DNA from: Patescibacteria group bacterium
Lineage (GTDB): Bacteria; Patescibacteriota; Patescibacteriia; UBA2591; JABMQE01
DNA length: 64,000 nt
Reading direction: 5' to 3'
Assembly: GCA_018896645.1 (NCBI GenBank)
Contig: JAHIMF010000041.1
Coordinates: 1,980 to 65,979, forward strand
Part shown: one piece after another, positions 9,843-56,453 of the stretch
Layout of the letters: each line of letters begins with the position of its first letter
Position numbering within the stretch: position 1 is the stretch's first letter
Notes under the pieces: model-generated
Databases searched by the model: none
What the model was told of the DNA's origin: nothing
Seen by the model: the letters and a program-made list of their open reading frames with translations, nothing else
Translations under genes and position numbers: made by a program

Positions 9843-9854
9843 GCTAATGTGTGA

Positions 9855-9979: not shown

Positions 9980-9993
9980 TTTTTTAATGAAAC

Positions 9994-10767
9994 ATGAAAC
10001 CCACTCTTCATTTCCAAAGATTTGAATTTAAATATCCAATGCATAAGCCAACGGCCGAGAAGATAATTCCAGCCCTATTAAAATATATGAGCTGGGATCC
10101 TTTTGTTTCGGGAAGGGGAGATAAATCTTACTTGGTAAATAGTCTTTATTTTGACAATAGCGGTTATGGCTGTTATTTTGAGAAGGAGTCGGGCGAGAAG
10201 TTTAGGAAAAAATTTCGTTTACGAGTTTATGAGAGCGAAGTTAAAGATGATACGAACATTTTTGTAGAAATAAAGAGAAAAAATAACGCTTTGATAATAA
10301 AGGACAGAGTGCATTTGCCAGCTAAAGATGCGAGGAGGATTTTAGTGAATAATAAATTGAATAGCTATGTTGGGCAAATCAGCGACGATGACATGATGGT
10401 TTTAAAAGAATTTTTATGGACTAAGAATTATAATTGCATGATGCCCAGAATTATGGTAGCATATAGGAGGAAACCGTTAGTAGCCAAGACAGACAGGAAT
10501 GTTCGGGTGACATTTGATTATGACATCCGCGCAAAATTAACAAACTGGTTTAATTGTAATAATTTTGCCTGGAAAGAGGTTTTGCCAGGCAGTTTAATTT
10601 TAGAGATAAAATATAATAATATCCTGCCTTTTTGGCTGCACGAGATTATCCAAAAATATCAACTGGAGCGGGTCGCTTTTTCAAAATATTGTAATGCGGT
10701 AAGGGCTTGTATGCCGCAGATTGACGATGGAAGCGGAAGGGACAGCGGAAACTATTTGGGTGTATAA
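9994..10767 (+). CDS. VTC-domain (polyphosphate-polymerase/CYTH-like) protein
   Basis: 257 aa ORF. N-terminal 'QRFEFKY' is typical of bacterial VTC-domain proteins. Sits in the usual genomic context with CotH and DUF4956. Confidence 0.6.
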   Translation: MKPTLHFQRFEFKYPMHKPTAEKIIPALLKYMSWDPFVSGRGDKSYLVNSLYFDNSGYGCYFEKESGEKFRKKFRLRVYESEVKDDTNIFVEIKRKNNALIIKDRVHLPAKDARRILVNNKLNSYVGQISDDDMMVLKEFLWTKNYNCMMPRIMVAYRRKPLVAKTDRNVRVTFDYDIRAKLTNWFNCNNFAWKEVLPGSLILEIKYNNILPFWLHEIIQKYQLERVAFSKYCNAVRACMPQIDDGSGRDSGNYLGV

Positions 10768-10786
10768 CTTTTAATAATAAAAAATT

Positions 10787-11470
10787 ATGCTAGACAACTT
10801 GTTTGGATCGGGAGGAGCAACAACTTTATCCGTTGGAACAATTATTGTTAACATCACACTCACTTTTTTATTGACGTTTATTATCGCCCTGGTTTATAGA
10901 AAGACCCACAAAGGATTATCATATTCCCAATCATTTGTGTTTACTTTGGTGCTTTTGGGGGTATTAATTTGTGTAGTGATGATGGTAATTGGCAGCAGTG
11001 TAGCTCGGGCCTTTGGAGCCCTGGGCGCATTTTCTTTAATTCGTTTTAGAACGGCAGTTAAAGACACCAAGGATACGGCTTTTGTGTTTTTTGCGGTAGC
11101 TATCGGAATGGCGATTGGAACTAATAATTATCATATTGCCATAATTGGCGTGATAATTATTTCTTTTATCATATTAATTTTGTCCCGTATAAATTTTGGC
11201 TCAATCAGGAAATATGATTACATTCTAACTTTTATGAGCGATAGCGATAAGGTCGCTGATGGGGCCACAAAACCAATTTTTAGCAAGTATCTGAAAACAA
11301 GCAATCTTTTGAATGTCTCGGCAAAGGAACATGGCAAGATTTTGGAAATGACTTTTAATGTTAAATTTTTTAGCGAAGACGACAGGGACAACCTTCTTAA
11401 AGAACTCAATGCGATTGAAGGCGTGAGCGAGGTAAATTTAATTAGCGCTAAGAATGACATTGAGTATTGA
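10787..11470 (+). CDS. DUF4956-like membrane protein
   Basis: 227 aa ORF. Three or four N-terminal TM helices plus a C-terminal soluble domain. Position immediately after the VTC gene matches the conserved CotH/VTC/DUF4956 arrangement. Confidence 0.45.
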   Translation: MLDNLFGSGGATTLSVGTIIVNITLTFLLTFIIALVYRKTHKGLSYSQSFVFTLVLLGVLICVVMMVIGSSVARAFGALGAFSLIRFRTAVKDTKDTAFVFFAVAIGMAIGTNNYHIAIIGVIIISFIILILSRINFGSIRKYDYILTFMSDSDKVADGATKPIFSKYLKTSNLLNVSAKEHGKILEMTFNVKFFSEDDRDNLLKELNAIEGVSEVNLISAKNDIEY

Positions 11471-11521
11471 TAGATTAGGATTGTATTTTTGTAGGTTGGG
11501 ATTAAATTATAATTTACTTTC

Positions 11522-32316: not shown

Positions 32317-34353
32317 ATGTCTAAAAGATTTTTTTTATTCATATTTTTTTTGATAGCATCATTCTTCACCAGCAATGCAGTTTTTGCTTATCTGCCAACT
32401 GATCCGGGTTTTAGAACCGAACAGTGGTATTTACAGAAAATTAAAGCTTCTCAAGCCTGGGATTTTACTAAGGGTTCGGAAGATATTGTGATAGCAATTT
32501 TAGATTCTGGCGTAGATATTGACCATCCCGATCTTAAAGATAATATTTGGGTTAATGCCGGAGAGATATCAGGGGATGGGATTGACAATGATAATAATGG
32601 TTATATTGACGATATCCATGGCTGGGATTTTGTTGGTAATGACAATAATCCTCAACCTGATATTTTGGGCGTTCCTTATAACGAAGCCGGAGCTAACCAC
32701 GGTACGATTATAGCCGGAGTCTTGGGTGCCCGGGGAGACAATGCTAAAGGTATTGCCGGTATCACCTGGTATTCAAAAATTATGCCTCTGCGGGTGCTTA
32801 ACAGTGTTGGACTTGGTGATTCTGGTGCCGCGGTCCAAGCCATTGATTATGCAATAGTCCAGGGGGCGGATATTATTAACATGAGTTTTGTGGGGCCAGA
32901 CTATAGTTCGGCGATGTACCAAGCGGTTCGACGGGCCTGGGAAAAGGGTATAATTATTGTCGCAGCCGCGGGCAATGATTCAGTTGAGCAAGGTGATGAC
33001 TTGGATACCTATCATAGTTTTCCTGTGTGTTATGATGGGGCGGACAATATGGTCATCGGGGTGGCGGCAGTGGATGACAAGGACCGTAAGTCGGTTTTTT
33101 CAAACTTTGGCAATACCTATGTAGATGTTGCGGCACCGGGTGTTTCTTTTTATAGCACTCTTTTTCAGGACTTTTCTTCTCCTGATTTTCAGAATGAATA
33201 TGGCGGCTATTGGTCTGGGACTTCGGTGGCTACGCCCTTAGTTTCCGGGGCGGCTGCCTTGATTAAATCCTTAAGTCCAAATTTTTCCAATAAAAAAGTG
33301 AGAGATATTATTATTGCAAGCGCAGAGAATATAGATCCTGCTAATCCAGATATCGCTGGCAAGTTGGGTGGGGGTCGGCTTAATCTTTACAAAGCCTTAG
33401 ATTTGGCCTATAGCCAGCTTTTTAATATAGATTTGACTAAAAATATTATCACTGGCGCCGGCATTGGCGGCGGACCACATGTTAGAGTTTTTCAATCATC
33501 AGGCATAGCAATAACTAGCTTTTTTGCCTATGATGAAGGATTCCGGGGGGGTGTAACAGCAGTTGGTTGTGATTTGGATGGCGATGGGACGAGTGAAATT
33601 ATCGCTGGCGCCGGCATTGGCGGCGGACCCCATGTTAGAATTTTTGACCGTAAAGGAAAGCTTATCAATCTTTTTTTTGCTTATGATGAGCGATTTCGCG
33701 GCGGGGTTAATGTTGCTTGTGGTGATTTAGATGGTGACGGCAGGGACGAAATTGTCACTGGCGCCGGCATTGGCGGCGGACCCCATGTGCGTATTTTTAA
33801 TGGGGATGGACAGTTGGTTAATCACTTTTTTGCTTACAGTGAAAATTTTCGCGGCGGGGTGAATGTAGAAGTGGGGGATTTAGATAACAACGGCCGAGCC
33901 GAGATTTTCACTGGGCCCGCTTCCGCCGGCGGTCCCCAGGTTAGAATTTTTGATTGGCATGGGGCAGTGGTTGGCCAATTTTTTGCTTATAAAAAGGATT
34001 TTCGCGGGGGAATAGATATTGGCCTGGGTGATTTAGATGATAATGGCAGCCAAGAGATTATTGTCGGTGTTTCTCGCGGGGGCAGTTCTTATATCCGGGT
34101 TTTTGATCAATCATTTATTTTACGTTATCAATTTTTAGCTTACTTAGATGAATTCCAAGGAGGCGTCAATTTGGCTGTGGCTGACTTAGAGAGTGATGGC
34201 CGGGCCGAGATTATTACTGGTGCTGGCCAAGGCGGCGGTCCCCAAGTGCGGATATTTAATATAGAGGGCAAACCCTTGTCGCAGTTTTTCGCTTATTCTA
34301 AGTATTTTCGTGGGGGAGTGAACGTGGGGACGATGAAGAGTAATGGGGAATAA
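32317..34353 (+). CDS. secreted subtilisin-like serine peptidase (S8) fused to six FG-GAP/beta-propeller-like repeats
   Basis: 678 aa ORF with a signal peptide 'MSKRFFLFIFFLIASFFTSNAVFA'. Catalytic triad motifs 'AILDSGVD', 'HGTIIAGV' and 'GTSVATPLVSGAAAL'. Six ~57-aa repeats of the form 'TGAGIGGGPHVRIF...FFAY...FRGGV...GDLDGDG..EI'. Confidence 0.8.
   Translation: MSKRFFLFIFFLIASFFTSNAVFAYLPTDPGFRTEQWYLQKIKASQAWDFTKGSEDIVIAILDSGVDIDHPDLKDNIWVNAGEISGDGIDNDNNGYIDDIHGWDFVGNDNNPQPDILGVPYNEAGANHGTIIAGVLGARGDNAKGIAGITWYSKIMPLRVLNSVGLGDSGAAVQAIDYAIVQGADIINMSFVGPDYSSAMYQAVRRAWEKGIIIVAAAGNDSVEQGDDLDTYHSFPVCYDGADNMVIGVAAVDDKDRKSVFSNFGNTYVDVAAPGVSFYSTLFQDFSSPDFQNEYGGYWSGTSVATPLVSGAAALIKSLSPNFSNKKVRDIIIASAENIDPANPDIAGKLGGGRLNLYKALDLAYSQLFNIDLTKNIITGAGIGGGPHVRVFQSSGIAITSFFAYDEGFRGGVTAVGCDLDGDGTSEIIAGAGIGGGPHVRIFDRKGKLINLFFAYDERFRGGVNVACGDLDGDGRDEIVTGAGIGGGPHVRIFNGDGQLVNHFFAYSENFRGGVNVEVGDLDNNGRAEIFTGPASAGGPQVRIFDWHGAVVGQFFAYKKDFRGGIDIGLGDLDDNGSQEIIVGVSRGGSSYIRVFDQSFILRYQFLAYLDEFQGGVNLAVADLESDGRAEIITGAGQGGGPQVRIFNIEGKPLSQFFAYSKYFRGGVNVGTMKSNGE
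33448..34353 (+). repeat. tandem ~171-bp intragenic DNA repeats (six units) encoding the FG-GAP-like blades
   Basis: Near-identical DNA stretches such as 'ACTGGCGCCGGCATTGGCGGCGGACCMCATGT' recur at ~33460, 33601, 33761 and 34210. Confidence 0.6.
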
Positions 34354-43537: not shown

Positions 43538-43747
43538 CACAAAAGACCACAAATTTTGCCATTATAGTTTGGTTTGTGTATAATGCAATTAGTGATATTT
43601 ATCCATTTAGCATCTTTTCATTTATCATCTTTTTATTAATTTATTTGTTTATTAATTTATTGAATTTATTAATAAACTAATAAAAGCGAGCGAGCGCAAT
43701 AAATCAGTAAAAAATATGATAAATGGATATATGGAAAATGAAAATGT

Positions 43748-44263
43748 ATGAAACTCGGCGTTATCTCCGATACCCACGGGGAAATAGAAAAAATTAAAAA
43801 AGTCCTTGAAATTTTCAAAAAAAGAAGCGTAGAAATGATTATTCATGCCGGGGACATGGACAGGGTTAGAAATTTAGAAGTGTTTCAAGGCATTGGGGTG
43901 CCTTTAAAAATGGCAATTGGCAATATAGATGAAGAGCCTGTTTTGTATCCGCCGAAAGCCAAAGAATTAGGCCTTGATTTTGAAATGAACAGTTTTTTGA
44001 ATGTAGAAGCCGGGGAAAGGCGATTGTTTTTATTTCACGGTAATGTGTTGGGCGGGCTTGAGCAGGTATTTGATACCTTGATTACTTCTCGCAAATATGA
44101 TGTTATAATATACGGACATACGCACAAGCCGCGGAATGAATATAAAGATAATGTATTGATTTTAAACCCCGGTAGTTTACAATCAATTCAGTTGGGGATT
44201 AAAGATTCAGCGGCAGTGTATGATACAGAGACTAACAAGGCAAAGATTATAGAGGTTAATTAA
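43748..44263 (+). CDS. metallophosphoesterase (YfcE/MJ0936-like)
   Basis: 171 aa ORF. 'ISDTHG', 'HAGD', 'GNID' and 'GHTH' metal-binding motifs. Confidence 0.7.
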   Translation: MKLGVISDTHGEIEKIKKVLEIFKKRSVEMIIHAGDMDRVRNLEVFQGIGVPLKMAIGNIDEEPVLYPPKAKELGLDFEMNSFLNVEAGERRLFLFHGNVLGGLEQVFDTLITSRKYDVIIYGHTHKPRNEYKDNVLILNPGSLQSIQLGIKDSAAVYDTETNKAKIIEVN

Positions 44264-44298
44264 ACAAGCAATCGAATAAATAAGTAAAGTAGATTATT

Positions 44299-46344
44299 AT
44301 GAAACTTTTAATTACCGGCGGGGCCGGGTTTATCGGCTCCAATTTTATCCGTTATATTTTAAAAAAATATCCAGGTTATAAAATTATTAATCTGGATAAA
44401 TTAACTTATGCCGGGAACTTGGAGAATTTGCGTGACTTATCCGCCCCTGGCGGAGAGAATGATCCCAGATATAAATTTGTTAAAGGTGATATTTGTGATG
44501 AGAAAATTGTCAGTGAAGCGGCCAAGGATGTTGATGCAATAGTGAACTTTGCGGCAGAAAGCATTTCAGAAGAAACCTACTTACCGATTTGGAACAGAGG
44601 AAATATAGAAGTTACTACCCTGAAAGAACTGTTTGAGAAAGTTGTTCATCAAAATAAGACAAAGGTGGTGGTCCGAAAAGACAGAGAAATAATTAATTTT
44701 GCTCATAAAAATTATAAAGTTCTATCATATAAAGGTGGTATTGGCTATTGGATGCCAATTAAGCAAATGAGTAGACATAAGTATAAAGGCAAATTAATAA
44801 GACTGAGTCAAAAATGGGGAGAGATTACTGCCACACCCAATCATTCAATTTATGACTGTGATTTTAATTTGACCACCCCCCTTAAAAATCCAGAACTTTT
44901 AGGTTTAAGAAACATAAACCACATTTCCAAAAAAAAGAAATATCTGAATTTTTCAGGTAAAAAGTTAAAGGTCCTATTAAGAGTTTTGGGAGCCTACATT
45001 TCTGAAGGTTGGACAACATATAATAAAAGGAATGGGAGCTATCATTTTGGTATATCTAATACTGATGAAGAACAGATAGTATTGCTAAAAGATGATTTAT
45101 TATCGCTGGGTTATAGACCGAATATTACCAAAACAAAGGGTGGATTATTTCAGCTAATAATTAGTAATAAAGGTTTTTTTAATTTTGTTAGAAAAGAGGC
45201 GGGATTTAGATCAGCAGGTAAATTTATTCCCTCTTTTATTTTTCAGCTAGAGACTTCTCTACAACAAGAATTTTTGCGGCTGTTAGTGTGGGGAGATGGG
45301 CAAGAGATAGTAAATAAAAATTATAAAACCACAAGATATGTTACTAAATCTAAAAAATTAGCTACAGGGCTATCTTTATTGCTTTCTCTATTTCATTATA
45401 ATTATTCTGTAGGTTATGATAAAAGATTCAATGCTTACATCATTGTTTGGGGTAATGATTATACGATTTCATTAATAAATAAAGAATATACAGAAATACC
45501 TTACGACGGTTATGTTTATGATATTTCAGTAGATAATTTAAAAAACTTTGTTTGCGGAGTAGGGAATATAGTTGTTCATAATACGCATGTGGACCGCTCG
45601 CTTTACGAACCTGGTAGTTTTATTAAAACCGATGTTTATGGCACTTGGGTTTTGCTTGAGGTAGTGAAAAGGTTTAAGATTAAAAAATATTTGCAGGTCT
45701 CAACTGATGAAGTTTATGGTGATGTTTCTAGCCCCAATTTTTCAAAAGAGACGGACTTGTTGCACCCCTCGTCTCCTTATTCTGCTTCTAAGGCTGGCGG
45801 TGATATGCAGGTATTGGCAAGTCACCGAACTTTTGACTTACCGATTTTAATTACCAGAAGTTCTAATAATTATGGACCTTTCCAATATCCAGAAAAAATT
45901 GTACCTTTGTTTATAACGAATTGTCTGGAAAATAAGGAAGTGCCGGTTTATGACGGGGGAACGCAGATCAGGGATTGGTTGTATGTTGAGGATAATTGTA
46001 CGGGCATTGATACGGTATTACACAAAGGCGAGTTTGGCGAGATTTATAATATCGGCGCTAATCAAGAGCCGGAAATTACTAATTTGGAGTTGACCAAAAC
46101 AATATTAAAATTAACCGAGAAAGATGAATCTTTAATCAAACACGTTACTGGTCTTAGGCCTGGTCATGACCAACGTTATGCAGTGGACACTACAAAGATT
46201 CGTAAATTAGGATGGGAACCCAAAATGAGTTTTAAGGAGGGCATGAGTCAAACGGTTTATTGGTATGTTAAGAATCAGGATTGGTGGAAGAAGATAAAGA
46301 GCGGAGAATATCTTGAGTATTATAAGAAGCATTATCGCGAGTGA
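44299..46344 (+). CDS. rfbB: dTDP-glucose 4,6-dehydratase interrupted by an in-frame intein; 340 aa of extein plus a 341 aa intein
   Basis: N-extein 'MKLLITGGAGFIGSNFIRYILKKYPGYKIINLDKLTYAGNLENL...VNFAAE' and C-extein 'THVDRSLYEPGS...YVSTDEVYGD...YSASKAGGD' are collinear with RmlB throughout. Confidence 0.85.
   Translation: MKLLITGGAGFIGSNFIRYILKKYPGYKIINLDKLTYAGNLENLRDLSAPGGENDPRYKFVKGDICDEKIVSEAAKDVDAIVNFAAESISEETYLPIWNRGNIEVTTLKELFEKVVHQNKTKVVVRKDREIINFAHKNYKVLSYKGGIGYWMPIKQMSRHKYKGKLIRLSQKWGEITATPNHSIYDCDFNLTTPLKNPELLGLRNINHISKKKKYLNFSGKKLKVLLRVLGAYISEGWTTYNKRNGSYHFGISNTDEEQIVLLKDDLLSLGYRPNITKTKGGLFQLIISNKGFFNFVRKEAGFRSAGKFIPSFIFQLETSLQQEFLRLLVWGDGQEIVNKNYKTTRYVTKSKKLATGLSLLLSLFHYNYSVGYDKRFNAYIIVWGNDYTISLINKEYTEIPYDGYVYDISVDNLKNFVCGVGNIVVHNTHVDRSLYEPGSFIKTDVYGTWVLLEVVKRFKIKKYLQVSTDEVYGDVSSPNFSKETDLLHPSSPYSASKAGGDMQVLASHRTFDLPILITRSSNNYGPFQYPEKIVPLFITNCLENKEVPVYDGGTQIRDWLYVEDNCTGIDTVLHKGEFGEIYNIGANQEPEITNLELTKTILKLTEKDESLIKHVTGLRPGHDQRYAVDTTKIRKLGWEPKMSFKEGMSQTVYWYVKNQDWWKKIKSGEYLEYYKKHYRE
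44560..45582 (+). mobile_element. intein with LAGLIDADG homing-endonuclease domain inside rfbB
   Basis: Starts with Ser (S88, 'SISEETYL', block A). Block B 'TATPNHSIY' (TxxH). Two LAGLIDADG-like motifs 'LLRVLGAYISEGW' and 'FLRLLVWGDGQE'. Ends 'NIVVHN' followed by a +1 Thr. The insertion splits the conserved extein motif FAAES|HVDRS. Confidence 0.75.
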
Positions 46345-46390
46345 TTGAATAATTAAGTAACTAACTAATCGAGTAATTAGGTAATTATTT

Positions 46391-47098
46391 ATGTCAAAAC
46401 CAAAGATATACCCATCGGTTGTTACTTGGGGAGCGGATTGGAGACAGCAATTAAGAGATGTTAAAAAATTGAAATTAAGGGAGGCGACTGTTTTTTTGAC
46501 TGGAATTGACAAAGATGCACATCAAGAATTCTATAGATTTTTAAAAAATAGCGGGATTAAAAAAATACCTCATATTCATTTGCGGCATGATTTTGATGAG
46601 GACGAAATTAAAGACTTGACTAAAGAATATGGCGTAGATTATTTTACGATTCATTTTAAAACAGTTGAGCATTATTTGAATTGGAATAAAAGCTTGAAGG
46701 ATAAAATGTGTGTTGAATATAATGCTGATGAATGGGAAGGAGTAAAAATTAACGATTTTGAATTTATAAAAGAGATTGCCGGGGTTTGTGTTGATATTGG
46801 GCACTATGCCGCTGAAAATTTGTTGAATCGGTTTAATACCATCGAATTGTTTAAAAAAGTGATTGACACTTATCCCGTTGTAATAAATCATCTAAATGGC
46901 AAATATTTTGTTAAAAACAAAGATGGATGCGATGAAATAAAGCGAGGACATTTAGTGGTTGACATAAAAAAAGATTTTGAATATTTGGATGATGTGCCTA
47001 GAAAATTATTTACTAAAAATGTTTATCTTGAATTAAGGAATACGATACCGGAACAGATTGAGATAAGGGATTATTTGTATGGGAAATATTTTAAATAA
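46391..47098 (+). CDS. hypothetical protein between rfbB and the epimerase/reductase
   Basis: 235 aa ORF with no recognisable motif. Sits within the rhamnose gene set. Confidence 0.3.
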   Translation: MSKPKIYPSVVTWGADWRQQLRDVKKLKLREATVFLTGIDKDAHQEFYRFLKNSGIKKIPHIHLRHDFDEDEIKDLTKEYGVDYFTIHFKTVEHYLNWNKSLKDKMCVEYNADEWEGVKINDFEFIKEIAGVCVDIGHYAAENLLNRFNTIELFKKVIDTYPVVINHLNGKYFVKNKDGCDEIKRGHLVVDIKKDFEYLDDVPRKLFTKNVYLELRNTIPEQIEIRDYLYGKYFK

Positions 47099-47204
47099 AA
47101 ATTTCTACCCGACTTTAGTCGAGGGTTCGCGAAGCATTAGCTTCAGACGAAGGCAACTAAAGTTGTCCGACCCTGACCTAAAGGTCGGTAGAAAGTGAAA
47201 AACC

Positions 47205-48023
47205 ATGAAATACCTAATTTTCGGCAATGGCTATCTTGGCCAACAATTTCATAAATATTTTAAAGGCTCGGTGATGAGTGAGGTTTTTGTTAAGAAAGAG
47301 GAAGATGCTTTGCGTGAGATTGAGAAACATGAGCCGGAATGGGTGCTAAATTGCGCTGGGATAACTGGCCGGCCTAATATTGATTGGTGCGAAGATAATA
47401 AACAGGAGACATTTGAGGGCAATGTTTTATTACCCTTGATGATTGCTAAAGCTTGCAAAAAAGTTGGGGTTAAGATGTTGCATTTGGGCTCGGGCTGCGT
47501 ATATTCCGGCGATAATAATAGGAAGGGCTGGAGCGAAAAAGACGCGCCAAATTTTAGCGGCAGTTTTTATTCTAAAACCAAGGCCTTAAGCGAGGATATG
47601 TTAAAAGATTATAATGTTTTGCAATTGCGTTTGCGGATGCCAATTGATAATGATATTTCCAGTGAAAGAAACTTCATTAAAAAAATTACTGGTTATAAAA
47701 AAGTGATTGATATAAAAAATTCCATGACTATTGTTGATGATTTACTGCATGTTGCTGACACTTTGATGTCAAGAAATAAAACCGGAATTTATAATATGGT
47801 TAATCCCGGACCGATGAGCCATAGAGAAATTCTTGATTTGTATAAAGAGATGGTTGACTCAAAGTTTAATTACGATATTATTTCAGTTGATGAGTTGCAT
47901 AAAACGACTAAGGCGGAGAGGAGTAATTGTGTTTTAAATATGGAGAAATTAACGAAAGAAGTGGAGTTAAAGCCGTTGAAAGAGCGTTTGACTGAAATCT
48001 TTCAGAGAACACAGGAAAAGTAA
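47205..48023 (+). CDS. NRS/ER-type bifunctional NDP-4-keto-6-deoxyglucose 3,5-epimerase/4-reductase (eukaryote/giant-virus-like rhamnose synthase C-terminal-domain homolog)
   Basis: 272 aa ORF. 'NCAGITGRPNIDWCEDNKQETFEGNV', 'GSGCVYSGD', 'PNFSGSFYSKTKALSEDML...LQLRLRMPI', 'RNFIKKITGYKKVIDIKNSMTIVDDLL' and 'NPGPMSHREILDLYK' are collinear with Arabidopsis NRS/ER blocks (GRPNVDWCE, GSFYSKTKAMVEELL, LRVRMPI, RNFITKI..Y.KVVDIPNSMT, NPGVVSHNEILEMYK). Confidence 0.65.
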   Translation: MKYLIFGNGYLGQQFHKYFKGSVMSEVFVKKEEDALREIEKHEPEWVLNCAGITGRPNIDWCEDNKQETFEGNVLLPLMIAKACKKVGVKMLHLGSGCVYSGDNNRKGWSEKDAPNFSGSFYSKTKALSEDMLKDYNVLQLRLRMPIDNDISSERNFIKKITGYKKVIDIKNSMTIVDDLLHVADTLMSRNKTGIYNMVNPGPMSHREILDLYKEMVDSKFNYDIISVDELHKTTKAERSNCVLNMEKLTKEVELKPLKERLTEIFQRTQEK

Positions 48024-48108
48024 CTTATAGTAATAAGCTCGCTCACTGCGGTTCGCTTCGCGTAATACAGTTGTAACTCAATAGTCACTCATTGTAATAT
48101 TTTAAATT
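48021..48108. repeat. truncated copy of MITE family D (left TIR plus internal segment; right TIR absent)
   Basis: TAACTTATAGTAATAAGCTCG at 48021-48041 is identical to the TIR at 34901. Its first TAA is the stop codon of the upstream CDS. The following 'GCTCGC..TTCGCGTAATACAGTTGTAACTCA' parallels the interior and ends of the 34901 copy. Confidence 0.45.
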
Positions 48109-48157
48109 TAATCTGCCTTACAGCTTATAGCTTTAAGGCTTTACAGCTCAAAAATTT

Positions 48158-48880
<723 letters not shown>

Positions 48881-48957
48881 TTTAAGCATTGAACCATTCG
48901 CACGCCTGCCCGCCTCTGGAGGGAATGGTTCCAAGATTGCAACTGTTTAAAAAGAAA

Positions 48958-48986
48958 AAACCACTCCGGTAAACCGTGAGTGGTTG
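48958..48986 (-). terminator. candidate rho-independent terminator for the minus-strand gene ending at 49142
   Basis: Hairpin CCACTCCGGTAAACCGTGAGTGG preceded on the plus strand by AAAAAGAAAAAA, which is a U-tract on the minus-strand transcript. Confidence 0.35.
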
Positions 48987-49141
48987 TAGATTTTATGATT
49001 GGTATCCTACGATTGATTTTGGAATCTCGATTATGCCGCTTTGATGGCCTTGGTTAGTTTTTCAACTTCTCACGTAATCAAAATTACCAGAATAGTTAGG
49101 ATGATAAGCTATTTAAGCAGCGGTTCCTCCCATCTTTGTTT

Positions 49142-49861
49142 TTATTCTTCCATTCTGCGCAGACACTCCCAATATAACAGTTCGCAATTACGGCAATCTA
49201 CACAAACTGAGCTCCAGGGCGTGCTGCACATGCGGACACCTCTACCCTTATAGCGTTTCAGTATTTCCAGTAAGACTTCGGTTTTGATGCAGTAATAATC
49301 ATTAAGAATACTTTTCCGCCATTCGTAGTCTTCTGACATAACCACATTTGCCTGATTATAATAACGCATAAATGTCATAACAACCGGTACTCCTTGAGCC
49401 AGGTAATACTCAACTAGTGAATCCTGAACTCCCAGGCCCCAGCTATTTGTTCTGATGCGCACAAACATTACATTCTTTGGGCACTCAACGAACAGGGACT
49501 CTCTGCCATTACAAGTAAAGACTACTGGTGCCGGAAAGTCAAAACGAGGATGCGAGGTGTTGAAGAAACGGTGTTCATACTGGTTAGTGGATTCAATAAC
49601 ATATTCTCGTTGAATATTGCTATCATGACCACTATTAATACGAACAATTTTCCCTGCCGCTTCTTGGGGAGTAGGAAACAATGGCTTGTCTAGTGTCCGA
49701 TAGAATCTCCCACCATTATAGAAGCACTCGGCACATCCCATGGGACATTCTCCGGTCTGGGGGATACAGTCAATCAAATTAGTGTTAGCCAGCTTGGGGT
49801 TTCTGTCCATAATCTTCTCCTTTGAGCACAATTGTTTCAGGATATTTCGGAAGAGGTTCAT
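49142..49861 (-). CDS. Cys-rich hypothetical protein with N-terminal CX3CX2C motif, in a GC-rich islet
   Basis: 239 aa ORF. 'GECPMGCAECFYNGG' near the N-terminus and 'CSTPWSSVCVDCRNCELLYWEC' at the C-terminus. Local GC is ~48% against a ~33% background. Confidence 0.4.
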   Translation of the reverse strand: MNLFRNILKQLCSKEKIMDRNPKLANTNLIDCIPQTGECPMGCAECFYNGGRFYRTLDKPLFPTPQEAAGKIVRINSGHDSNIQREYVIESTNQYEHRFFNTSHPRFDFPAPVVFTCNGRESLFVECPKNVMFVRIRTNSWGLGVQDSLVEYYLAQGVPVVMTFMRYYNQANVVMSEDYEWRKSILNDYYCIKTEVLLEILKRYKGRGVRMCSTPWSSVCVDCRNCELLYWECLRRMEE

Positions 49862-50065
49862 TAGGAATAAAGCCCCGCTTCAAAAGTGCTTCCCCAACAG
49901 CCCAGAGCCGAACATTTAGGAACCGTTCTCCCATTGAGGGGTCATTATTCTGCTCGGTGCGCCCCTTCCTTTTTGAACGAGCCATAGTTTCTCCTCCTTT
50001 TTTGAGTGGTTTTTGTAGGTTTATTTCGTTGGCTTTATATTATTCTTTTATAATCTTTTTGTCAA

Positions 50066-50920
50066 ATGGATATTCTTCATCTCAAAAAAATTCTCAAATT
50101 AACTAAAGCTGGGTTGATTTTGTTTTTTGTTTTTCTCTTTTGCTATTTATTTTATAAAGATTTTGTACCTTCTGGAAAATTAGTTATCATTAATAATTTT
50201 CAAAATAAATCGCAATTGATTTCTGATTTATATCCTGATGTGCGGGTGGAAAAAATTAAGCAAGACGAGCAGGGAAATTTTTATCAAACAATGTTTATTG
50301 ATCCAGTATATTTTAAGATAAACCCGCCGCGGGCGTTTAGGAAAGCGACGATAAAAATTGTTTATAAAAATAAAGAGCAATCATTGTTTCAAATTGGTTT
50401 AAAGCTTGGGGAAGAAGGTTGGGTATTTGATTTTAAGACTTTGGAATTTCAAAAGATCGATGATTTATCGTGGTATAAATTGCAAAAAGATAATCTTATC
50501 CTTTTACAAAAATCCAGGCGATACCGAGAGATCGACGATTTTTTACTGGAGCCGCCCACCCAGGGCCGGATTGCTCAATTTGGCTATACTTTAGAGCTTG
50601 CCAACCCGGCTGATTATTTATTAACAGCCCTTAACACAAAAACTGATCTTAATCATATCAGTTATATCATTGCTCGATACATCCAACCAGAGGTTGACGA
50701 CAGTGATATCAAAACAGCCCAGGCTGAGTTTTTTATTGATCGTTCTTTTCTTGTTGATGGGAAATTAGTATTTATTTTTTCTGCTCCGGAAATGGATGTT
50801 AATAAGCGCGAAATAGACATTTACGAAATTCAAGTTGCTCTAGAACGGGAACCCCTTAAATTGGGCAACACTATCAGACAAGCTGGGGGATATTTGAAGG
50901 ATATCATAGTAAATTTTTAA
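50066..50920 (+). CDS. hypothetical membrane-anchored protein
   Basis: 284 aa ORF with an N-terminal TM helix and no recognisable motif. Confidence 0.3.
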   Translation: MDILHLKKILKLTKAGLILFFVFLFCYLFYKDFVPSGKLVIINNFQNKSQLISDLYPDVRVEKIKQDEQGNFYQTMFIDPVYFKINPPRAFRKATIKIVYKNKEQSLFQIGLKLGEEGWVFDFKTLEFQKIDDLSWYKLQKDNLILLQKSRRYREIDDFLLEPPTQGRIAQFGYTLELANPADYLLTALNTKTDLNHISYIIARYIQPEVDDSDIKTAQAEFFIDRSFLVDGKLVFIFSAPEMDVNKREIDIYEIQVALEREPLKLGNTIRQAGGYLKDIIVNF

Positions 50921-51256
50921 TAGGTTTTCATTGTTACATTGTTTTATTGCTTATTTTTCTTGTTAACAATGTAGCAATGAAGCAATGTAACAATGGGCGC
51001 CATTGACTAGCCATTAACTGAGTAACCTGAAAAGCCATAATTATTCAACAATCAAAACTAAACATCTTTCTTTGGTTTTCGGCTAAATTGTTTAAGCAGT
51101 GTTTTGTGATTTGTTTGGCTGCGCTTTTAATATTTCTTATTATTGAAGACGCCAAATGCGGCTTTGTATTGAATTATTTTGATCTGGGCAAGCTTTTTGT
51201 TTTATGTATTTTTTTGGGTATTGGCGCCTTGTTGACGAGTAAAAAGGGCGAATTTC

Positions 51257-52843
51257 TTAGTGAATTGTGATTTTGTAGATTCCGTTTTTGTCGCCTATTT
51301 CAGCGTGAAGATAGATAAAATTTTTGTCCTTGTTGGGAAACAAATTGTAAATTTTTTTCACCTCAAGTAAATTAACAATGTTGCGTCGATTTCGGCTATC
51401 AAGCTCCAATGCATAGATTATATCTTTGCCGGCATTTTTCAGGGAGAGCAGTAAATAGTTTTGTTCTTTTGTGGATATAATTTTTTTGATTTCCGAGCTA
51501 AACCGGCTAAGAATGTATCTGGTGTCTTGCAAGGGTTTGCCATTGGAGTCGTAATTTTTTAAATCAGTTTGCCAAATTTCAAAATCATTATAATAAATCA
51601 AAGTTTGTGAAGCGGGTAAATAAAGGACATCTTTAGCTTTTGTTTCATTAAGAATAACTTCTTTAGTTTTGGTATTGATAAGCCAGATTTTTTGTTCGTG
51701 CCCTCTTTGGAAAAAGTCACCAGCAAGGGCTGATGATCCCCGCCCGGGAAAATCATCAGCCCTTGCTGGTGATTGAACTAATAATAATTCATCATCAATT
51801 TTAGAAAGAGAATACAGCGTACCTTGGTTTTGGGAGGAACCAAGCGGTAGCTCCAAGAGACAAGTCTTGGAAATCGCTTCAATTCTTAGGCTGCTGCCGT
51901 CTGTAGTCAAACCTACATAATTTAGGCACCAGTTCTCTTGCCATTTTTTAAGATAGAAAATATTCCAATCCTTGGCTATTAAAAAATCATCAAGACTTTG
52001 AGTTTTTATTTGCAGAAAAGGTTTTATTTTTTTTGTGAAAAGATTTATTTGATAGGTAGTGTTTTTTCTGGCGCCGTAAATAAGATTAGGATTTTGATGG
52101 TCCCACTTTAGATTGTCTAGCGGCGTATAGTTTTGGAAAGAATTTACTGATGTATTTTCTCCGGTTTCTGCATTGATGATTATATAATTTTTATATTCTG
52201 GTTTTTGTTCAGTAATTAATATTTTTTGGCTGGTATTATTCCATTTGATGTCAATAATTGAATCATGAGTTTCAAACAGGGTAGTCGTTTGTTCGGTTTT
52301 GATATCCAGTAGTTTTAAGGTGTTATTTAATAAGAGAGCCGTTTTTTGCTGATCCGGGGCAATCTGCACCTGGCTGATGTTTCCTTGAGTGAGCGCTTGA
52401 ATTTCCGGCTGCAAACGGAAGAGCAGCACTTGGTCAGCAAAAGTTGCTTCATTGCTGGTGATAGTTAATCTCTTGACCCAGGGGTGATAATCAGGTTTTG
52501 TCAGTTTAATAAGATATTCATTAGGAATAAGATTATTAATAATCAAAGGTGTTTTTTGAATATTTTTTTGCTCTTGGCTTTGGGTGGCAGCGATGATTCT
52601 AAATAAAGTCCTCCAGGCGCTGCCTGAAAATAGATTTTGACGAGGTTGGTTGTCAATATAGACAGAAGCAGCTTTTGGGTAAGTTTCAAGAATTAAACTG
52701 CCGGTTTTAACAATTTCGTGTTTTTTAAAATCATAACGAAAACCACTGCTAGCGAGAATTAGCAAAGGCGCAGTGATTAGGAAAAGTATGATGATTGAGA
52801 GGTAAATTAAGCGGCGGAGAGTGATGTTCATATTGATTGACAA
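51257..52843 (-). CDS. membrane-anchored PEGA-domain protein with C-terminal beta-rich domain
   Basis: 528 aa ORF. N-terminal TM helix, then 'LILETYPKAASVYIDNQP', a PEGA-like motif. Confidence 0.4.
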   Translation of the reverse strand: MSINMNITLRRLIYLSIIILFLITAPLLILASSGFRYDFKKHEIVKTGSLILETYPKAASVYIDNQPRQNLFSGSAWRTLFRIIAATQSQEQKNIQKTPLIINNLIPNEYLIKLTKPDYHPWVKRLTITSNEATFADQVLLFRLQPEIQALTQGNISQVQIAPDQQKTALLLNNTLKLLDIKTEQTTTLFETHDSIIDIKWNNTSQKILITEQKPEYKNYIIINAETGENTSVNSFQNYTPLDNLKWDHQNPNLIYGARKNTTYQINLFTKKIKPFLQIKTQSLDDFLIAKDWNIFYLKKWQENWCLNYVGLTTDGSSLRIEAISKTCLLELPLGSSQNQGTLYSLSKIDDELLLVQSPARADDFPGRGSSALAGDFFQRGHEQKIWLINTKTKEVILNETKAKDVLYLPASQTLIYYNDFEIWQTDLKNYDSNGKPLQDTRYILSRFSSEIKKIISTKEQNYLLLSLKNAGKDIIYALELDSRNRRNIVNLLEVKKIYNLFPNKDKNFIYLHAEIGDKNGIYKITIH

Positions 52844-53052
52844 AAGGAGGTTTTGGGGGTAGAGTAAAGATGATGGATGTGAAGTAAGATTTTTCGTACA
52901 TTGTATATAATGTTCAATTGTCCGATTGCTCGATTGATAAATTGTTTAGAATGATTTTGTAACAATCGAACAATTGAACAATGAAACAATGAGCAAGGGG
53001 CATATTTAAACAACAGAAATCAAAATAATAGAAAGTTTTACGCAACCCCACC

Positions 53053-54306
53053 ATGTCTAAATTTATCATCACCGGCGGTAAAAAGCTTTCCGGTGAAATC
53101 CCAGTTAATGGCGCAAAAAATGCAGCTTTGAAAATTATTCCAGCTGCCTTGCTTTTTGATGAAAAGATTACTATTAGCAATGTGCCTAAAATTGAAGATG
53201 TGACTCGGCTGTTAGAAATTGTAAAAGATTTGGGGGTGGAAGTCAAGCAAAAAGGCAACACGGTTAAAATTCAAGCGGGTGATATTAAATCAGGTGAACT
53301 TTCCCGCGATTTGGTGCCAAAATTGCGAGCTTCTAATATGCTGATTGGTCCCCTGCTTTTGCGGGTAGGCGAGGTCGTGATTCCTCATGCCGGGGGTTGC
53401 GCTATTAGCCGGCGCCCGATTGATGTTTGGGTAAATCTTTTTAAACAACTTGGCGCAGAGGTGGAACAAGGCCCCAAATTATATACTTTCAAAGCTCGAA
53501 AAATGCGCGGCGCCAAATTGGTGTTTCCTTTTATTTCGGTAACTGCTACTGAAGCCTTGATGATGACAGCCGTATTGTTGTCTGGAAAAACAACTATTGT
53601 TAATGCAGCCATGGAGCCAGAAATCCCGGCCTTGGCTGATTATCTTAACGAATGCGGCGCAAAGATAAAAGGCGCCGGTACTAGCGAGATTGTGATCGAG
53701 GGCGTTAAACAGCTTAAAGCCCGACCTTTCACCGTGATACCTGACAGAATTGAAGCTGGCAGTTTTGCGTGTCTTGGAGCGGCTACTCGAAGTAGAATAA
53801 AGATCACTCATTGTAATCCGAATCACCTTGAGGTGCCTTTGGCGATTTTAGAGCAGATGGGCGTTAATTTTGTTGTTGGCAAGGACTACATTCAAATTAA
53901 AGAAGTTAGCGACCTAAAAGCAACAAAAATTAAAACCCATGAATATCCAGGTTTTCCTACTGATTTGCAATCTCCGTTTACTACTTTATTGACCCAAGCC
54001 AAGGGGGACAGCTTAGTTCATGAAACGATTTTTGAAGGTCGGCTTTTTTATACTGATATTTTAAATCAGATGGGAGCCGAGATTATTATGTGTGATCCTC
54101 ATCGGGTAATTGTCCAGGGGCCAACAAAACTCTATGGCACTAAAGTTGCCAGCCCGGATATCCGGGCCGGTATTGCTTTAATCATTGCTGGCTTGATTGC
54201 CGAAGGCGAAACCGAGATAGATAATATTTATCAGATTGATCGGGGATATGAAGATATTGAAGGGCGGCTGAAAAAGCTGGGGGCGGGGATAAAGCGATTG
54301 GAGTGA
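53053..54306 (+). CDS. murA: UDP-N-acetylglucosamine 1-carboxyvinyltransferase
   Basis: 417 aa ORF. 'MSKFIITGGKKLSGEIPVNGAKNAALKIIPAALL' with the catalytic Cys in 'HAGGCAISRRPID'. Confidence 0.9.
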   Translation: MSKFIITGGKKLSGEIPVNGAKNAALKIIPAALLFDEKITISNVPKIEDVTRLLEIVKDLGVEVKQKGNTVKIQAGDIKSGELSRDLVPKLRASNMLIGPLLLRVGEVVIPHAGGCAISRRPIDVWVNLFKQLGAEVEQGPKLYTFKARKMRGAKLVFPFISVTATEALMMTAVLLSGKTTIVNAAMEPEIPALADYLNECGAKIKGAGTSEIVIEGVKQLKARPFTVIPDRIEAGSFACLGAATRSRIKITHCNPNHLEVPLAILEQMGVNFVVGKDYIQIKEVSDLKATKIKTHEYPGFPTDLQSPFTTLLTQAKGDSLVHETIFEGRLFYTDILNQMGAEIIMCDPHRVIVQGPTKLYGTKVASPDIRAGIALIIAGLIAEGETEIDNIYQIDRGYEDIEGRLKKLGAGIKRLE

Positions 54307-54413
54307 GATTTCTATTATTAGAAAACTGATATAGCGCGAGCGGTAGAAGTTGGTGATTAAGATTCGCGGCAAGAAAGTGATTATTGACGATTGGAAAAAA
54401 TAAATTTAAAAAG

Positions 54414-54447
54414 AAAAGCCGGGAGCTTGTAAGCCCTCGGCTTTTTG
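54414..54447. terminator. bidirectional rho-independent terminator between murA (+) and the convergent GC-rich islet genes (-)
   Basis: AAAAGCCGGGAGCTTGTAAGCCCTCGGCTTTTTG: a GC-rich hairpin flanked by an A-run and a T-run. Confidence 0.5.
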
Positions 54448-54476
54448 ATTATCCGTCATCCGGCGGAGAATCTATT

Positions 54477-55340
54477 TTATTTCACCAGCACCATTCTCCT
54501 CGTCTCTTGATAATTTCCTACGCAGAGGCGATAGAGATAGGCGCCAGTTCCAAATCCGCTTCCATCCCAAGCCACTTCGTACTGGCCGGCTCCCTGACGA
54601 CCCGCCACCAACGTTGCCACTCGCTGACCAATGGCGTCATAAATGGTCAACATGACATCACTGGCTTCTGGCAGATTGTAGGTGATGGTCGTAGCCAGGT
54701 TGAAGGGGTTGGGAAAGTTTTGTTGCAGAGCAATCTTGAAAGCAGTTGTTGCTTTCGCTTTTTTTACCACCTCCTTGCTTGCTTTTCCACCATTAATATA
54801 TATTACGGTATAAACAATGCCAATATTGTTTTTATATAGAACCGATGCTAAAACCGGGGTCCCGCTCTGTATATTAAAAAACAGAAACGAGTGAATGTAG
54901 CTTTCCCCATTGGGCGCGAAAACCCTGGCGTTTAACTCTCTTGAGATAAACTGGGCGATATTATTGTCACCACTGCCCGTTGAACAGGCAATAAGAACAA
55001 TATCAGGACTTGGGTTGAGATAAGGACTGATTTTTTCCCAAACATCAGCATCTCCAATCTCTATCCTCCAGGGATTATCCTGACCCGCAACTATTTTGTA
55101 ACTAATACCTTTAGTGTTGCCATGGCCACCGATGACCAATAAATCTATCATACCAGCGGGTTTATAGCCATAATTCTCTCCCATGCTTATGATATTAGCT
55201 ACAAATTTATTCCTACAATCTGCTTCAACGATTCGCAGGTCAAATCGCACATCCAGGAATCTCTGGATTATTTCAGGGTTTTGGTAAAACGCCCGGCTGT
55301 AATCCGTTTTAGGCAAAGCAATCACCGCCAGGGGCCGCAT
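54477..55340 (-). CDS. clan-CD (gingipain/caspase-like) cysteine-peptidase-like domain fused to a type IX secretion system C-terminal sorting domain; no signal peptide, possibly a fragment or pseudogene
   Basis: 287 aa ORF. 'DLLVIGGHGN' and 'IVLIACSTGSG' give a His/Cys dyad arrangement. The C-terminal 'LQQNFPNPFNLATTITYNLPEASDVMLTIYDAIGQRVATLV...GQYEVAWDGSG...GAYLYRLCVGNYQETRRMVLVK' is a canonical T9SS CTD. Local GC is ~50%. Confidence 0.6.
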   Translation of the reverse strand: MRPLAVIALPKTDYSRAFYQNPEIIQRFLDVRFDLRIVEADCRNKFVANIISMGENYGYKPAGMIDLLVIGGHGNTKGISYKIVAGQDNPWRIEIGDADVWEKISPYLNPSPDIVLIACSTGSGDNNIAQFISRELNARVFAPNGESYIHSFLFFNIQSGTPVLASVLYKNNIGIVYTVIYINGGKASKEVVKKAKATTAFKIALQQNFPNPFNLATTITYNLPEASDVMLTIYDAIGQRVATLVAGRQGAGQYEVAWDGSGFGTGAYLYRLCVGNYQETRRMVLVK

Positions 55341-55388
55341 GTGTGAGCCAGGCTCATCAGTAAAGGCTTGCCTCTGATTCCTATGCTC

Positions 55389-56453
55389 CTATAGATGAGA
55401 AAGAACCTTTACGGTGTACCTGCCAAAAAAAGAGATATTATATTGTTTGAATATATATCGGGCTGGCTCTGATGTCCCATACTTTTCATGCAATTGTTTT
55501 AGCCGATATAAATCCTCACCAATATTATTATCTCCCAACCCTTTTAAAGGATTGCTTTTCTTTAATTCCTTGAAAAAATCACCGTCCAAGCCAGTATAAT
55601 ACTTCACTGGCTTTTCAAATTCTTGCTCATCTAAAACCACATCAAAGCCTATACTGCGTAGACCGTCGCCCGCTCTTTCTCGCCCAGATTCGGGCGCCAT
55701 GGCTCTGGGGAAAAAGATTGCTTGAGTCAAGACCTTAATTATACGAGAGAGTAAGGCCTTGTTTCCTTCGCCAAGTCCATTGCCTATTTTACCCAAACTC
55801 GCAGCTGCTGTATCTTGGGCACGCCATTCCTTATCATTTAAAAAGATTCTGATTAACAGCTCTGCGTGTTGGGAATTACCTATTTCGCCCGATGCCCAGA
55901 CAGCCGCCCATCGAAGATAGTCATTATCGCTTTTTAGGGCCAGGGTTAAAAGATTTTCAGCTTCTGGACTAACTTCACCTATTTTGCCCAAAGCATACAT
56001 TGACTGAATGAGCAGGTCTACCAGCCAATAATCTTTATCCCAACCATTTTGAAAGCCCAAATCTATAATTTCTATCAGGAACGGCGCAATTCTTGAAACA
56101 CCAATTTCACCCAACCAATATATGGCTTCCTTTTTAATGAGTTTTGATTGGTCAAGATCATTTTTTACTACAAAAATCAACGCATCTATTATTTTGTCTA
56201 ATGCCTTTGTTTCGATGATAGTCAGGTCGTCTTTGTTCACCAAAACAACAGCTATCCCACCTAAAATTTTTACTGCGTTTCTTCGGACAAAGGGGTCTCT
56301 ATGGTTTTTTAATCCTTTTATCAACGGGTCCACGGTTCTGGGATCTTTTATCTTAATTAAATTATCAGTTGCATCGTTTATGATGGATAGCTTGGCGCCA
56401 TAAAAAAGAGCAATCAAGTTTCTCGCCGTCTCCATATCTTGTCTAACAGCCAC
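55389..56453 (-). CDS. HEAT-repeat (PBS-lyase-like) protein in GC-rich islet
   Basis: 354 aa ORF. Repeated 'D..VR..A..ALG.IG' units: 'DPFVRRNAVKILGGI', 'NDYLRWAAVWASGEIG' and 'EWRAQDTAAASLGKIG'. Confidence 0.6.
   Translation of the reverse strand: MAVRQDMETARNLIALFYGAKLSIINDATDNLIKIKDPRTVDPLIKGLKNHRDPFVRRNAVKILGGIAVVLVNKDDLTIIETKALDKIIDALIFVVKNDLDQSKLIKKEAIYWLGEIGVSRIAPFLIEIIDLGFQNGWDKDYWLVDLLIQSMYALGKIGEVSPEAENLLTLALKSDNDYLRWAAVWASGEIGNSQHAELLIRIFLNDKEWRAQDTAAASLGKIGNGLGEGNKALLSRIIKVLTQAIFFPRAMAPESGRERAGDGLRSIGFDVVLDEQEFEKPVKYYTGLDGDFFKELKKSNPLKGLGDNNIGEDLYRLKQLHEKYGTSEPARYIFKQYNISFFGRYTVKVLSHL

Follow-up and report, generated by a model that had tools for sequence, protein, structure and literature searches.

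A probable minimal radical SAM enzyme of phage-like descent in a Patescibacteria chromosome

The analysis of a short segment of raised GC content in the window, that is, in the whole 64,000-nucleotide stretch of Patescibacteria DNA under study, points to a gene for a compact protein which is probably a minimal radical SAM enzyme. The explanation that best accounts for the data has four components: the segment forms a single transcription unit, its main product is a minimal radical SAM enzyme, the gene for this enzyme is an old acquisition from a phage-like source, and the 66-aa open reading frame (ORF) that overlaps its start is a separate ORF. Taken as a whole, with all four components required to hold together, this explanation is judged to be fairly probable.

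The two overlapping reading frames described in the initial annotation are both present as claimed (Table 1), and the longer of them, of 239 codons, does contain the sequence GECPMGCAEC and does end in a cluster of six Cys within its last 52 residues, four of the six being invariant in the family. The first 17 of these codons have a counterpart in none of the homologs in the family alignment, because every aligned relative starts 1-10 residues ahead of an invariant N-P-K motif, which corresponds to the ATG at 49810 (MDRNPKL) with GGAG ahead of it; the same ATG is the start called by NCBI, giving a protein of 222 aa. Since the start supported by the homologs is the one at 49810, the gene overlaps the 66-aa ORF by 26 nt, and the overlap of 77 nt given previously holds for the 239-aa ORF and not for the gene. 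The 222-aa protein is identical in three NCBI accessions. Synonymous sites (pS) are saturated with changes but non-synonymous sites have diverged little (pN about 0.19), which indicates that the gene is under purifying selection; it is intact and selectively maintained. On the downstream side the unit is closed by a hairpin followed by a run of T, which the automatic terminator scan passes over because the stem is bulged. On the upstream side there is a sigma-70-like promoter candidate, which is a match to the consensus only, as shuffled sequence yields about as many such sites as the region contains.

Table 1. Positions in the window of the features of the transcription unit and its surroundings.
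Feature	Position	Strand	Remarks
Sigma-70-like promoter candidate, TTGACA-17-TAATAT	50037..50065	-	10/12 matches; 5' of the 66-aa ORF
Strong Shine-Dalgarno, AGGAGGAG	49991..49998	-	5-6 nt ahead of the start codon of the 66-aa ORF; strongest in the segment
66-aa orphan ORF, basic N-terminus	49785..49985	-	NCBI KKD19_04410; 26-nt overlap with the enzyme gene, in another frame
239-aa ORF	49142..49861	-	Same frame as the 222-aa gene, with 17 extra N-terminal codons
Shine-Dalgarno-like site, AAAGGAGAAG	49814..49823	-	6 nt ahead of ATG 49810; read from the sequence
Radical-SAM-fold gene for the putative two-Cys-cluster enzyme, 222 aa	49142..49810	-	NCBI hypothetical protein KKD19_04405
Codons C22-x3-C26-x2-C29, putative radical-SAM [4Fe-4S] ligands	49724..49747	-	Loop after strand beta-1
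Codons N59-S-G-H-D63-S-N65, proposed counterpart of 'GGE'	49616..49636	-	End of strand beta-2
Codons C195-x7-C203-x2-C206-x2-C209, proposed auxiliary Fe-S site	49184..49228	-	Four invariant Cys
Intrinsic-terminator-like hairpin, CCACTCaCGG-TTTA-CCGGAGTGG, then TTTTTTCTTTTT	48951..48983	-	About 160 nt past the stop codon; inverted repeat I11

A search of 5.8 billion protein clusters yielded 247 relatives of the 222-aa protein, and among the 120 matches listed the identities lie between 50 and 71%, most lengths lie between 220 and 250 aa, and no relative has a Pfam domain. The profile search of all 1.84 billion 50%-identity representatives gave 228 matches at E ≤ 0.001; a link to the wider radical SAM superfamily at the level of sequence would be expected to produce many more matches than this, so that the family must be regarded as small and isolated. 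In a diverse alignment of 83 representatives, which are 29-53% identical to the window protein, the invariant columns consist of exactly seven Cys (C22, C26, C29, C195, C203, C206 and C209) together with D63, and the near-invariant positions include N4, P5, K6, R57, N59, S64, N84, T85, T99, N101, R118 and T146. The CX3CX2C motif is therefore not a product of chance, being invariant in 83 diverse members; two members of a closer 34-member set have CX3CX7C in its place.

Profile libraries do not recognise the family. Pfam, NCBIfam and PHROGs assign neither of the two ORFs, and the window protein is unmatched by Pfam PF04055 and the NCBIfam models at E up to 1, which bears out the earlier statement that no known family could be named. 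When all 83 representatives are compared with Pfam at E ≤ 10, the most recurrent of the weak matches are Radical_SAM and Fer4_6, with 3 members each, and the best E-value for Radical_SAM is 0.096 (3/83 members); weak Fer4 matches are found in a few members. An identity as an anti-phage defence component was considered and rejected: PADLOC returned a single weak and probably spurious match (RTasTM, 16.5 bits, E 0.0014) in one of five family members and none in the others. Eight of the extra N- or C-terminal domains of the longer relatives were likewise tried as hints to function and set aside, the only one known to Pfam being WDGH, and the divergent fusion protein P0172, when used as a query, matched nothing other than by its unrelated N-terminal WDGH domain. 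The whole-protein scan of the longer relatives also found an intein. This HNH intein, in relative P0149, interrupts precisely the N-x-G-[HN]-D-S-N motif, which includes SGHD in the window protein. In phage genes for replication and nucleotide metabolism, inteins and homing endonucleases prefer conserved regions of the active site, and the insertion is consistent with SGHD being an active-site motif.

The AlphaFold2 model of the 222-aa protein, built on a 34-sequence alignment, has a pLDDT of 91.3 and a pTM of 0.89. Its strands comprise residues 12-16 (beta-1), 55-58, 81-85, 96-99, 114-121 and 143-147, with few helices, a hairpin at residues 162-175 and a C-terminal helical region which bears the four-Cys site, and low confidence is confined to the cluster loop, around residues 30-40. 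The core of the model is a partial (beta/alpha)6 TIM barrel, in which the Cys triad lies in the loop after beta-1. The best structural matches are radical SAM enzymes by two methods. In the first comparison the five leading matches, in rank order, are spore photoproduct lyase (SPL; PDB 4FHC; score 9.5, 175 residues aligned), NifB (8.8), Viperin (8.6), QueE (8.5) and Mmp10 (8.2); in the second, Foldseek, five SPL entries stand on top (E 0.01-0.05, probability 0.85-0.97, 204 columns), and all matches other than SPL have a probability of at most 0.54. The BFVD viral structure library contains nothing below E 0.01, and the only match in a sequence-profile search of the PDB is a spurious ribosomal protein. 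The description of the protein as radical-SAM-like thus holds, on the position of the Cys triad, the partial barrel and the ranking of radical SAM enzymes in both comparisons.

The assignment of individual residues to cofactor sites is more tentative, because it depends on the predicted structure and on a weak alignment. When the family profile was compared by hhalign with a Radical_SAM protein recognised by Pfam, encoded at phage locus L037, the E-value was 0.0035 at a probability of only 9%, and TGECPxxCxxCFYN...IVRVN-SGHD was paired with TQFCPCQCVYCSTN...IDRINISGGE. This weak pairing places the Cys triad of the family on CX3CX2C and D63 on the Glu of GGE, a motif which binds SAM. On these grounds all of the invariant residues appear to map to cofactor sites, namely the radical-SAM cluster, the SAM site and a second, four-Cys cluster. 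The residue ahead of the third Cys of radical SAM enzymes is usually aromatic; here it is a conserved Glu, which, like the failure of the sequence profiles to recognise the protein, speaks against a radical SAM enzyme. Since the Cys motif and the fold agree with those of the superfamily, while PF04055 and the profiles of every named family fail to recognise the protein, we file it, subject to the modelled structure, as a compact variant within the radical SAM superfamily with an additional C-terminal CX7CX2CX2C site.

The comparison with known systems supports a placement outside the named families. SPL (SplB; PDB 4FHC) has the nearest fold, with an identity of just 7-10%; it is 340 aa long as against 222 aa here, its Cys triad lies at about residue 90 and not at residues 22-29, and to our knowledge it has no C-terminal four-Cys site. 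Membership in the SPL family was accordingly rejected: there is no NCBIfam or Pfam match, and the identity and length are those just given, so that the fold is SPL-like and the protein is not an SPL. QueE is similar in size and has a trimmed barrel to which that of the 222-aa protein can be likened. It has no sequence match to the window protein, queC, queD and folE are absent from the annotated neighbours of the family loci, and we know of no C-terminal four-Cys site in QueE. The activases PflA and NrdG are also of similar size, and their cluster likewise lies close to the N-terminus. An hhalign comparison with PflA, for which an approximate sequence was used, aligned only a 14-residue Cys loop at a probability below 1%, and neither an anaerobic ribonucleotide reductase nor another glycyl-radical enzyme recurs beside the family gene.

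The nearest functional precedent for a phage radical SAM enzyme directed at DNA is gp53 of phage M6, an SPL-like radical SAM isomerase which remodels glycinyl-thymidine in DNA (PMC8989533). This enzyme also has SPL as its closest structural template and acts on DNA bases; its Cys motif starts at residue 125, and it works together with a kinase, an amino-acid transferase (aGPT-Pplase) and a PLP enzyme, with which it forms a fixed cluster (PMC8989533). The family described here differs from it in having no fixed partners of this type in 100 non-redundant loci, and the window protein has no similarity detectable by tblastn to the 50,697 GenBank phage records.

Copies of the gene were sought in several collections of genomes and metagenomes. 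There are 7 loci in 185,579 species genomes (one genome per species), 21 loci on IMG/VR viral contigs, several of which are 100-548 kb long, and 190 stretches in JGI metagenomes; one of the species-genome loci (L008) lies on the same contig as a viral one (L026). No family member was found by tblastn in the 50,697 GenBank phage records or in 72,556 plasmids (PLSDB). The family is mainly phage-borne and lies in modules of DNA replication and nucleotide metabolism, with a few relatives standing alone in Patescibacteria chromosomes. The annotated neighbours include DNA polymerases A (PolA) and B (PolB), class II ribonucleotide reductase (RNR), dCMP deaminase, dCTP deaminase/dUTPase (DCD), nucleoside deoxyribosyltransferase, UDG, RNase HII, ATP-dependent DNA ligase, RecT, PD-(D/E)XK nucleases, MazG, NUDIX, DHH phosphoesterases and RtcB, as well as DNA methyltransferases of the N6/N4, D12, MT-A70 and C5 types. 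Within 5 kb of the gene in 100 non-redundant loci the commonest neighbours are DNA methyltransferase (10), DNA polymerase A (8) and dUTPase (5), and no universal partner gene was found, either in an initial set of 34 loci or in these 100. A cysteine desulfurase gene lies directly upstream of one relative and an HNH-AP2 homing endonuclease gene directly upstream of another entry in the family, and phage locus L037 carries, in addition to its family gene, a separate small Radical_SAM gene.

The copy in the window has surroundings of a different kind. The window has a GC content of 37.5% and looks like a Patescibacteria chromosome; on one side of the gene lie rmlA, rmlD, an intein-containing rmlB-like gene and a metallophosphatase gene, and on the other side genes for a 284-aa protein without a Pfam domain, a PEGA/beta-propeller protein and a member of the EPSP-synthase family. 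The second-closest homolog (68% protein identity) occupies the same locus in a related Patescibacterium (L038), which shares the three upstream genes and their order and has a 284-aa protein that is about 60% identical. The common ancestor of the two organisms must therefore already have carried the gene at this site. In a neighbour-joining tree, which is rough and was computed without bootstrap, the window copy groups with L038 and L039 in a clade whose sister is a phage clade with GC contents of 54% (L030) and 64% (L032), and two other chromosomal-looking copies, one from a Patescibacteria MAG (L040) and L034, adjoin a clade of huge phages. The chromosomal-looking copies are thus polyphyletic among phage copies in this tree, which suggests that Patescibacteria took up the gene at least twice and kept it under purifying selection. 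Neither attachment sites nor integration targets were detected: the only repeat round the segment is an 11-nt perfect inverted repeat, at about chance level, and there are no tRNA genes or Rfam families that could serve as targets in the window.

The alternative to an acquisition is that the gene is an ordinary core gene, whose GC content and Cys content reflect amino-acid composition, so that there is neither an islet nor a foreign origin. In favour of this alternative are the synteny in the related genome and the absolute composition. The GC content of about 48% which had been given for the segment proves too high, the measured value for positions 49142-49985 being 44.5%, with 47.8% reached by the 66-aa ORF alone; this places the segment in the top 3.3% of 844-nt windows (mean 37.5%, sd 3.5), and the enzyme gene itself, at 43.8%, lies within the range of the long ORFs in the window (maximum 45.1%). 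The score for synonymous codons alone is low, at z = -2.3, and is not the lowest. Several observations speak against it. Across 64 loci the GC content of the gene tracks that of its flanks (slope 0.97, r 0.98, no intrinsic excess), yet it lies above the flanks by 6.0 points for the window copy and by 6.6 points for the L038 copy. Among 72 loci (mean excess -0.6, sd 3.0) these values rank third and second, and the window copy stands 2.2 sd above the family mean. The total codon score for host usage is -0.013, as against 0.268 ± 0.069 for the other long ORFs, and lies below all 43 of them; the gene is present in only 7 of the 185,579 species genomes; and the sister clade is phage-borne. The core-gene reading is consequently improbable. 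The test that the initial annotation had proposed, GC content within the range of the genome, gives a divided answer in that the absolute value is within the range of the long ORFs whereas the excess over the flanks is unusual for the family. Its proposal that the gene was acquired is supported by the phage-borne family, by the polyphyly of the chromosomal copies and by the 6-point excess, with the qualification that the event was old and has left the absolute GC content within the range of the window's genes. GC excess, codon usage, tree and synteny together fit neither a recent insertion nor a core gene, and point to an old acquisition in which the enzyme gene entered the lineage from a phage-like donor of higher GC content, before the split from the organism that carries L038.

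The 66-aa ORF has properties of its own. Among 5.8 billion proteins it matches only itself, it has no match in 38 related loci, and it is absent from the syntenic locus L038, where the intergenic region is of similar length and unrelated. Its codon score is 0.17, or 0.28 outside the overlap with the enzyme gene, in comparison with a mean of 0.276 for chunks of real genes of the same length and a 95th percentile of 0.228 for shadow ORFs. The predicted structure consists of a single helix with disordered ends (pLDDT 70) and has no fold. A riboswitch or structured leader beneath the ORF was tried as an explanation and rejected, the folding z being +0.88 relative to shuffles with no Rfam family that fits; the only Rfam match is sub-threshold and lies elsewhere (L10_leader, E 0.36). 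The ORF is probably a separate small gene which is translationally coupled to the enzyme gene, and is read either as a small gene peculiar to the lineage or as a translated leader, not as part of the enzyme.

Two readings would nevertheless tie the 66-aa ORF to the function of its neighbour. The initial annotation had suggested that the two ORFs are one gene carrying an accidental or programmed frameshift, with the 66-aa ORF as the N-terminus of the Cys-rich protein. The ORFs do overlap, the frame of the enzyme gene is +1 relative to that of the 66-aa ORF, the overlap contains A-AAC-CCC-A, so that tRNA-Pro could slip +1 on CCCC, and some relatives have N-terminal extensions, although these are unrelated. 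Against this stand the starts of all homologs 1-10 residues ahead of NPK, which correspond to the ATG at 49810 with its own GGAG; the lack of homologs of the 66-aa ORF and of any region like it in the family members; its absence from L038; and the loss of the near-invariant N4 that a +1 fusion within these 26 nt of overlap would entail. An indel near 49800-49860, which had been raised as a possible cause, is unlikely to be an assembly error, because an independent Logan assembly (L001) is identical to positions 43660-55810 of the window over 12,151 bp. The frameshift idea has hardly any remaining probability and is refuted for practical purposes. The other such reading takes the two genes as a RiPP pair, in which the 66-aa ORF encodes a precursor peptide and the radical SAM enzyme next to it, equipped with an auxiliary cluster, is the maturase. 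In its favour, the small ORF lies directly upstream of the gene for a radical-SAM-like enzyme that carries a C-terminal Cys cluster, and is coupled to this gene; the fold matches also include the RiPP epimerase EpeE as well as the maturases SuiB and SkfB. It is countered by the absence of a conserved upstream peptide gene from all of the 100 non-redundant loci, by the absence of the ORF from the syntenic relative, by the lack of any sign of a peptide-recognition (RRE) domain (Pfam finds nothing), by annotated flanking genes without a transporter or a protease, and by a family context of phage DNA metabolism. Membership in the SPASM/twitch group was rejected for related reasons, since CX7CX2CX2C does not fit the Cys spacing of that group, there is no SPASM-type Pfam domain, and no peptide gene is conserved upstream. 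A RiPP pair is therefore very improbable, slightly less so than a frameshift. A reading which concerns the enzyme itself, and which has a larger though still minor share of the probability, is that it binds Fe-S or Zn on a TIM-barrel-like scaffold and has no SAM radical chemistry, such as a redox or structural Fe-S nuclease or glycosylase-type enzyme, or an activase of a protein partner. This is unlikely in view of the exact and invariant CX3CX2C spacing in the canonical loop and of the invariant acidic residue in a GGE-like motif where beta-2 ends, and an activase is further disfavoured by the recurrent neighbours, which include no glycyl-radical enzyme gene.

The preferred explanation, an old phage-like acquisition that encodes a minimal radical SAM enzyme, can be stated as a sequence of steps. 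The minus-strand unit would be read in the order promoter-like site, Shine-Dalgarno, 66-aa orphan ORF, overlapping 222-aa gene and terminator hairpin, and the 222-aa protein would adopt a minimal radical-SAM fold of six beta strands and few helices. C22, C26 and C29 would be the ligands of a [4Fe-4S] cluster, and S-adenosylmethionine would bind to its fourth iron, with D63 of SGHD standing in for the Glu of GGE. Reductive cleavage of SAM would then generate a 5'-deoxyadenosyl radical, which would abstract a hydrogen atom from the substrate; the C-terminal CX7CX2CX2C may bind a second, auxiliary Fe-S cluster, or possibly Zn, and the enzyme would act without a dedicated partner protein. As to the substrate, the most likely candidate is DNA or a nucleotide, which would undergo a repair-type lyase reaction or be modified at a base. 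This is a guess, to be taken as possible and not as probable, which is made because the relatives lie in phage modules of replication, nucleotide metabolism and DNA methylation and because the nearest solved fold is that of the DNA-repair enzyme SPL. The Patescibacteria copies lie among unrelated housekeeping genes, unlike the phage-module context behind this guess.

Radical SAM enzymes are usually discovered by means of sequence profiles. The present family was missed by every profile library tried and was recognised only by its fold and its invariant Cys pattern, and it thereby adds a compact, unnamed branch to the superfamily. The phage-module context, the intein in the putative SAM motif, and the uptake and retention of the gene by Patescibacteria suggest that this branch carries out an undescribed, nucleic-acid-related radical reaction. 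A more specific proposal, which is put forward tentatively and is more likely to be wrong than right by some distance, is that the family constitutes a class of minimal two-cluster radical SAM enzymes which act directly on DNA, are spread by phages in anoxic habitats and have repeatedly been captured by Patescibacteria. If this were true, the family would represent a third kind of DNA-directed radical SAM enzyme, after SPL and M6 gp53 (according to a statement of 2021; PMC8989533).

The neighbourhoods of the radical-SAM-like family gene on viral and phage contigs place it beside different sets of genes. On one 106-kb viral contig (L012), where the family gene stands at 7956, a class-V aminotransferase gene of the cysteine desulfurase type lies directly upstream and a MazG gene directly downstream, and the presence of a cysteine desulfurase-type neighbour would fit a demand for Fe-S clusters. 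On a phage contig which encodes a 67%-identical homolog (L030), the start of the family gene is overlapped by a gene for an acyl-carrier-like protein, and the family gene is followed by a 227-aa gene of unknown function and a dCMP deaminase gene; this gene order, noted for L030 and L031, was observed in a single lineage only. In the window itself, neither of the two genes that flank the family gene was matched in Pfam or PADLOC, and the 284-aa flanking gene is conserved in that it also adjoins the family gene in the syntenic relative L038, at about 60% identity.

Features in the window and in related loci
Feature	Location	Strand	Details
Subtilase (Peptidase_S8) gene with FG-GAP repeats, 678 aa	window 32317-34353	+	44.9% GC
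rmlB-like dTDP-glucose 4,6-dehydratase gene, 681 aa	window 44299-46344	+	intein-bearing (Pfam); converted from L001 (independent assembly) 9467-11512
235-aa gene	window 46391-47098	+	flanks family gene
L10_leader (Rfam) match	window 48946-49071	-	sub-threshold: 22.7 bits vs gathering score 44, E 0.36
Perfect inverted repeat, 11 nt (AAAAACCACTC / GAGTGGTTTTT)	window 48956-48966 and 50004-50014		flanks two-ORF unit on both sides
284-aa gene	window 50066-50920	+	flanks family gene
FlgD_ig/Por_Secre_tail gene	window 54477-55340	-	45.1% GC; similar to subtilase case
Class-V aminotransferase gene, cysteine desulfurase type	L012 6783-7928	+	Aminotran_5, E 7e-119
PP-binding (acyl-carrier-like) gene, 81 aa	L030 4751-4996	+	14-nt overlap with family-gene start

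The two-ORF unit formed by the family gene and the 66-aa ORF is enclosed by an inverted repeat, one arm of which falls within the terminator and the other within the 5' leader; since roughly 0.4 such 11-nt pairs are expected by chance per 1.8 kb (our own rough estimate), the repeat is probably fortuitous. The same probably holds for the L10_leader match, which falls in the 3' untranslated stretch separating the stop codon from the terminator. In L038 the intergenic counterpart of the 66-aa ORF region (1755-2033) is unrelated in sequence and holds GC-rich palindromes, CCCCTTCTTAGATAAGGAGGGG and GGTTGGAAATATTAGCTGATTTTTCCAACC among them. The subtilase gene, probably the first GC-rich islet of the initial annotation, is an ordinary secreted-protease gene.

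Inteins occur both in the window, where precomputed Pfam hits place Intein_splicing as an interruption of Epimerase/GDP_Man_Dehyd in the rmlB-like gene, and in the family. There, a 585-aa metagenome relative (P0149) is split between RLNC and GNDSN, within the family's most conserved non-Cys motif; the intein at this point measures about 350 aa and contains an HNH homing endonuclease.

A single 68,846-bp contig is listed twice, in the species-genome collection as a 'bacterium' MAG scaffold (L008) and in IMG/VR as viral (L026), so binned phage genomes may account for some of the family's seemingly cellular loci.
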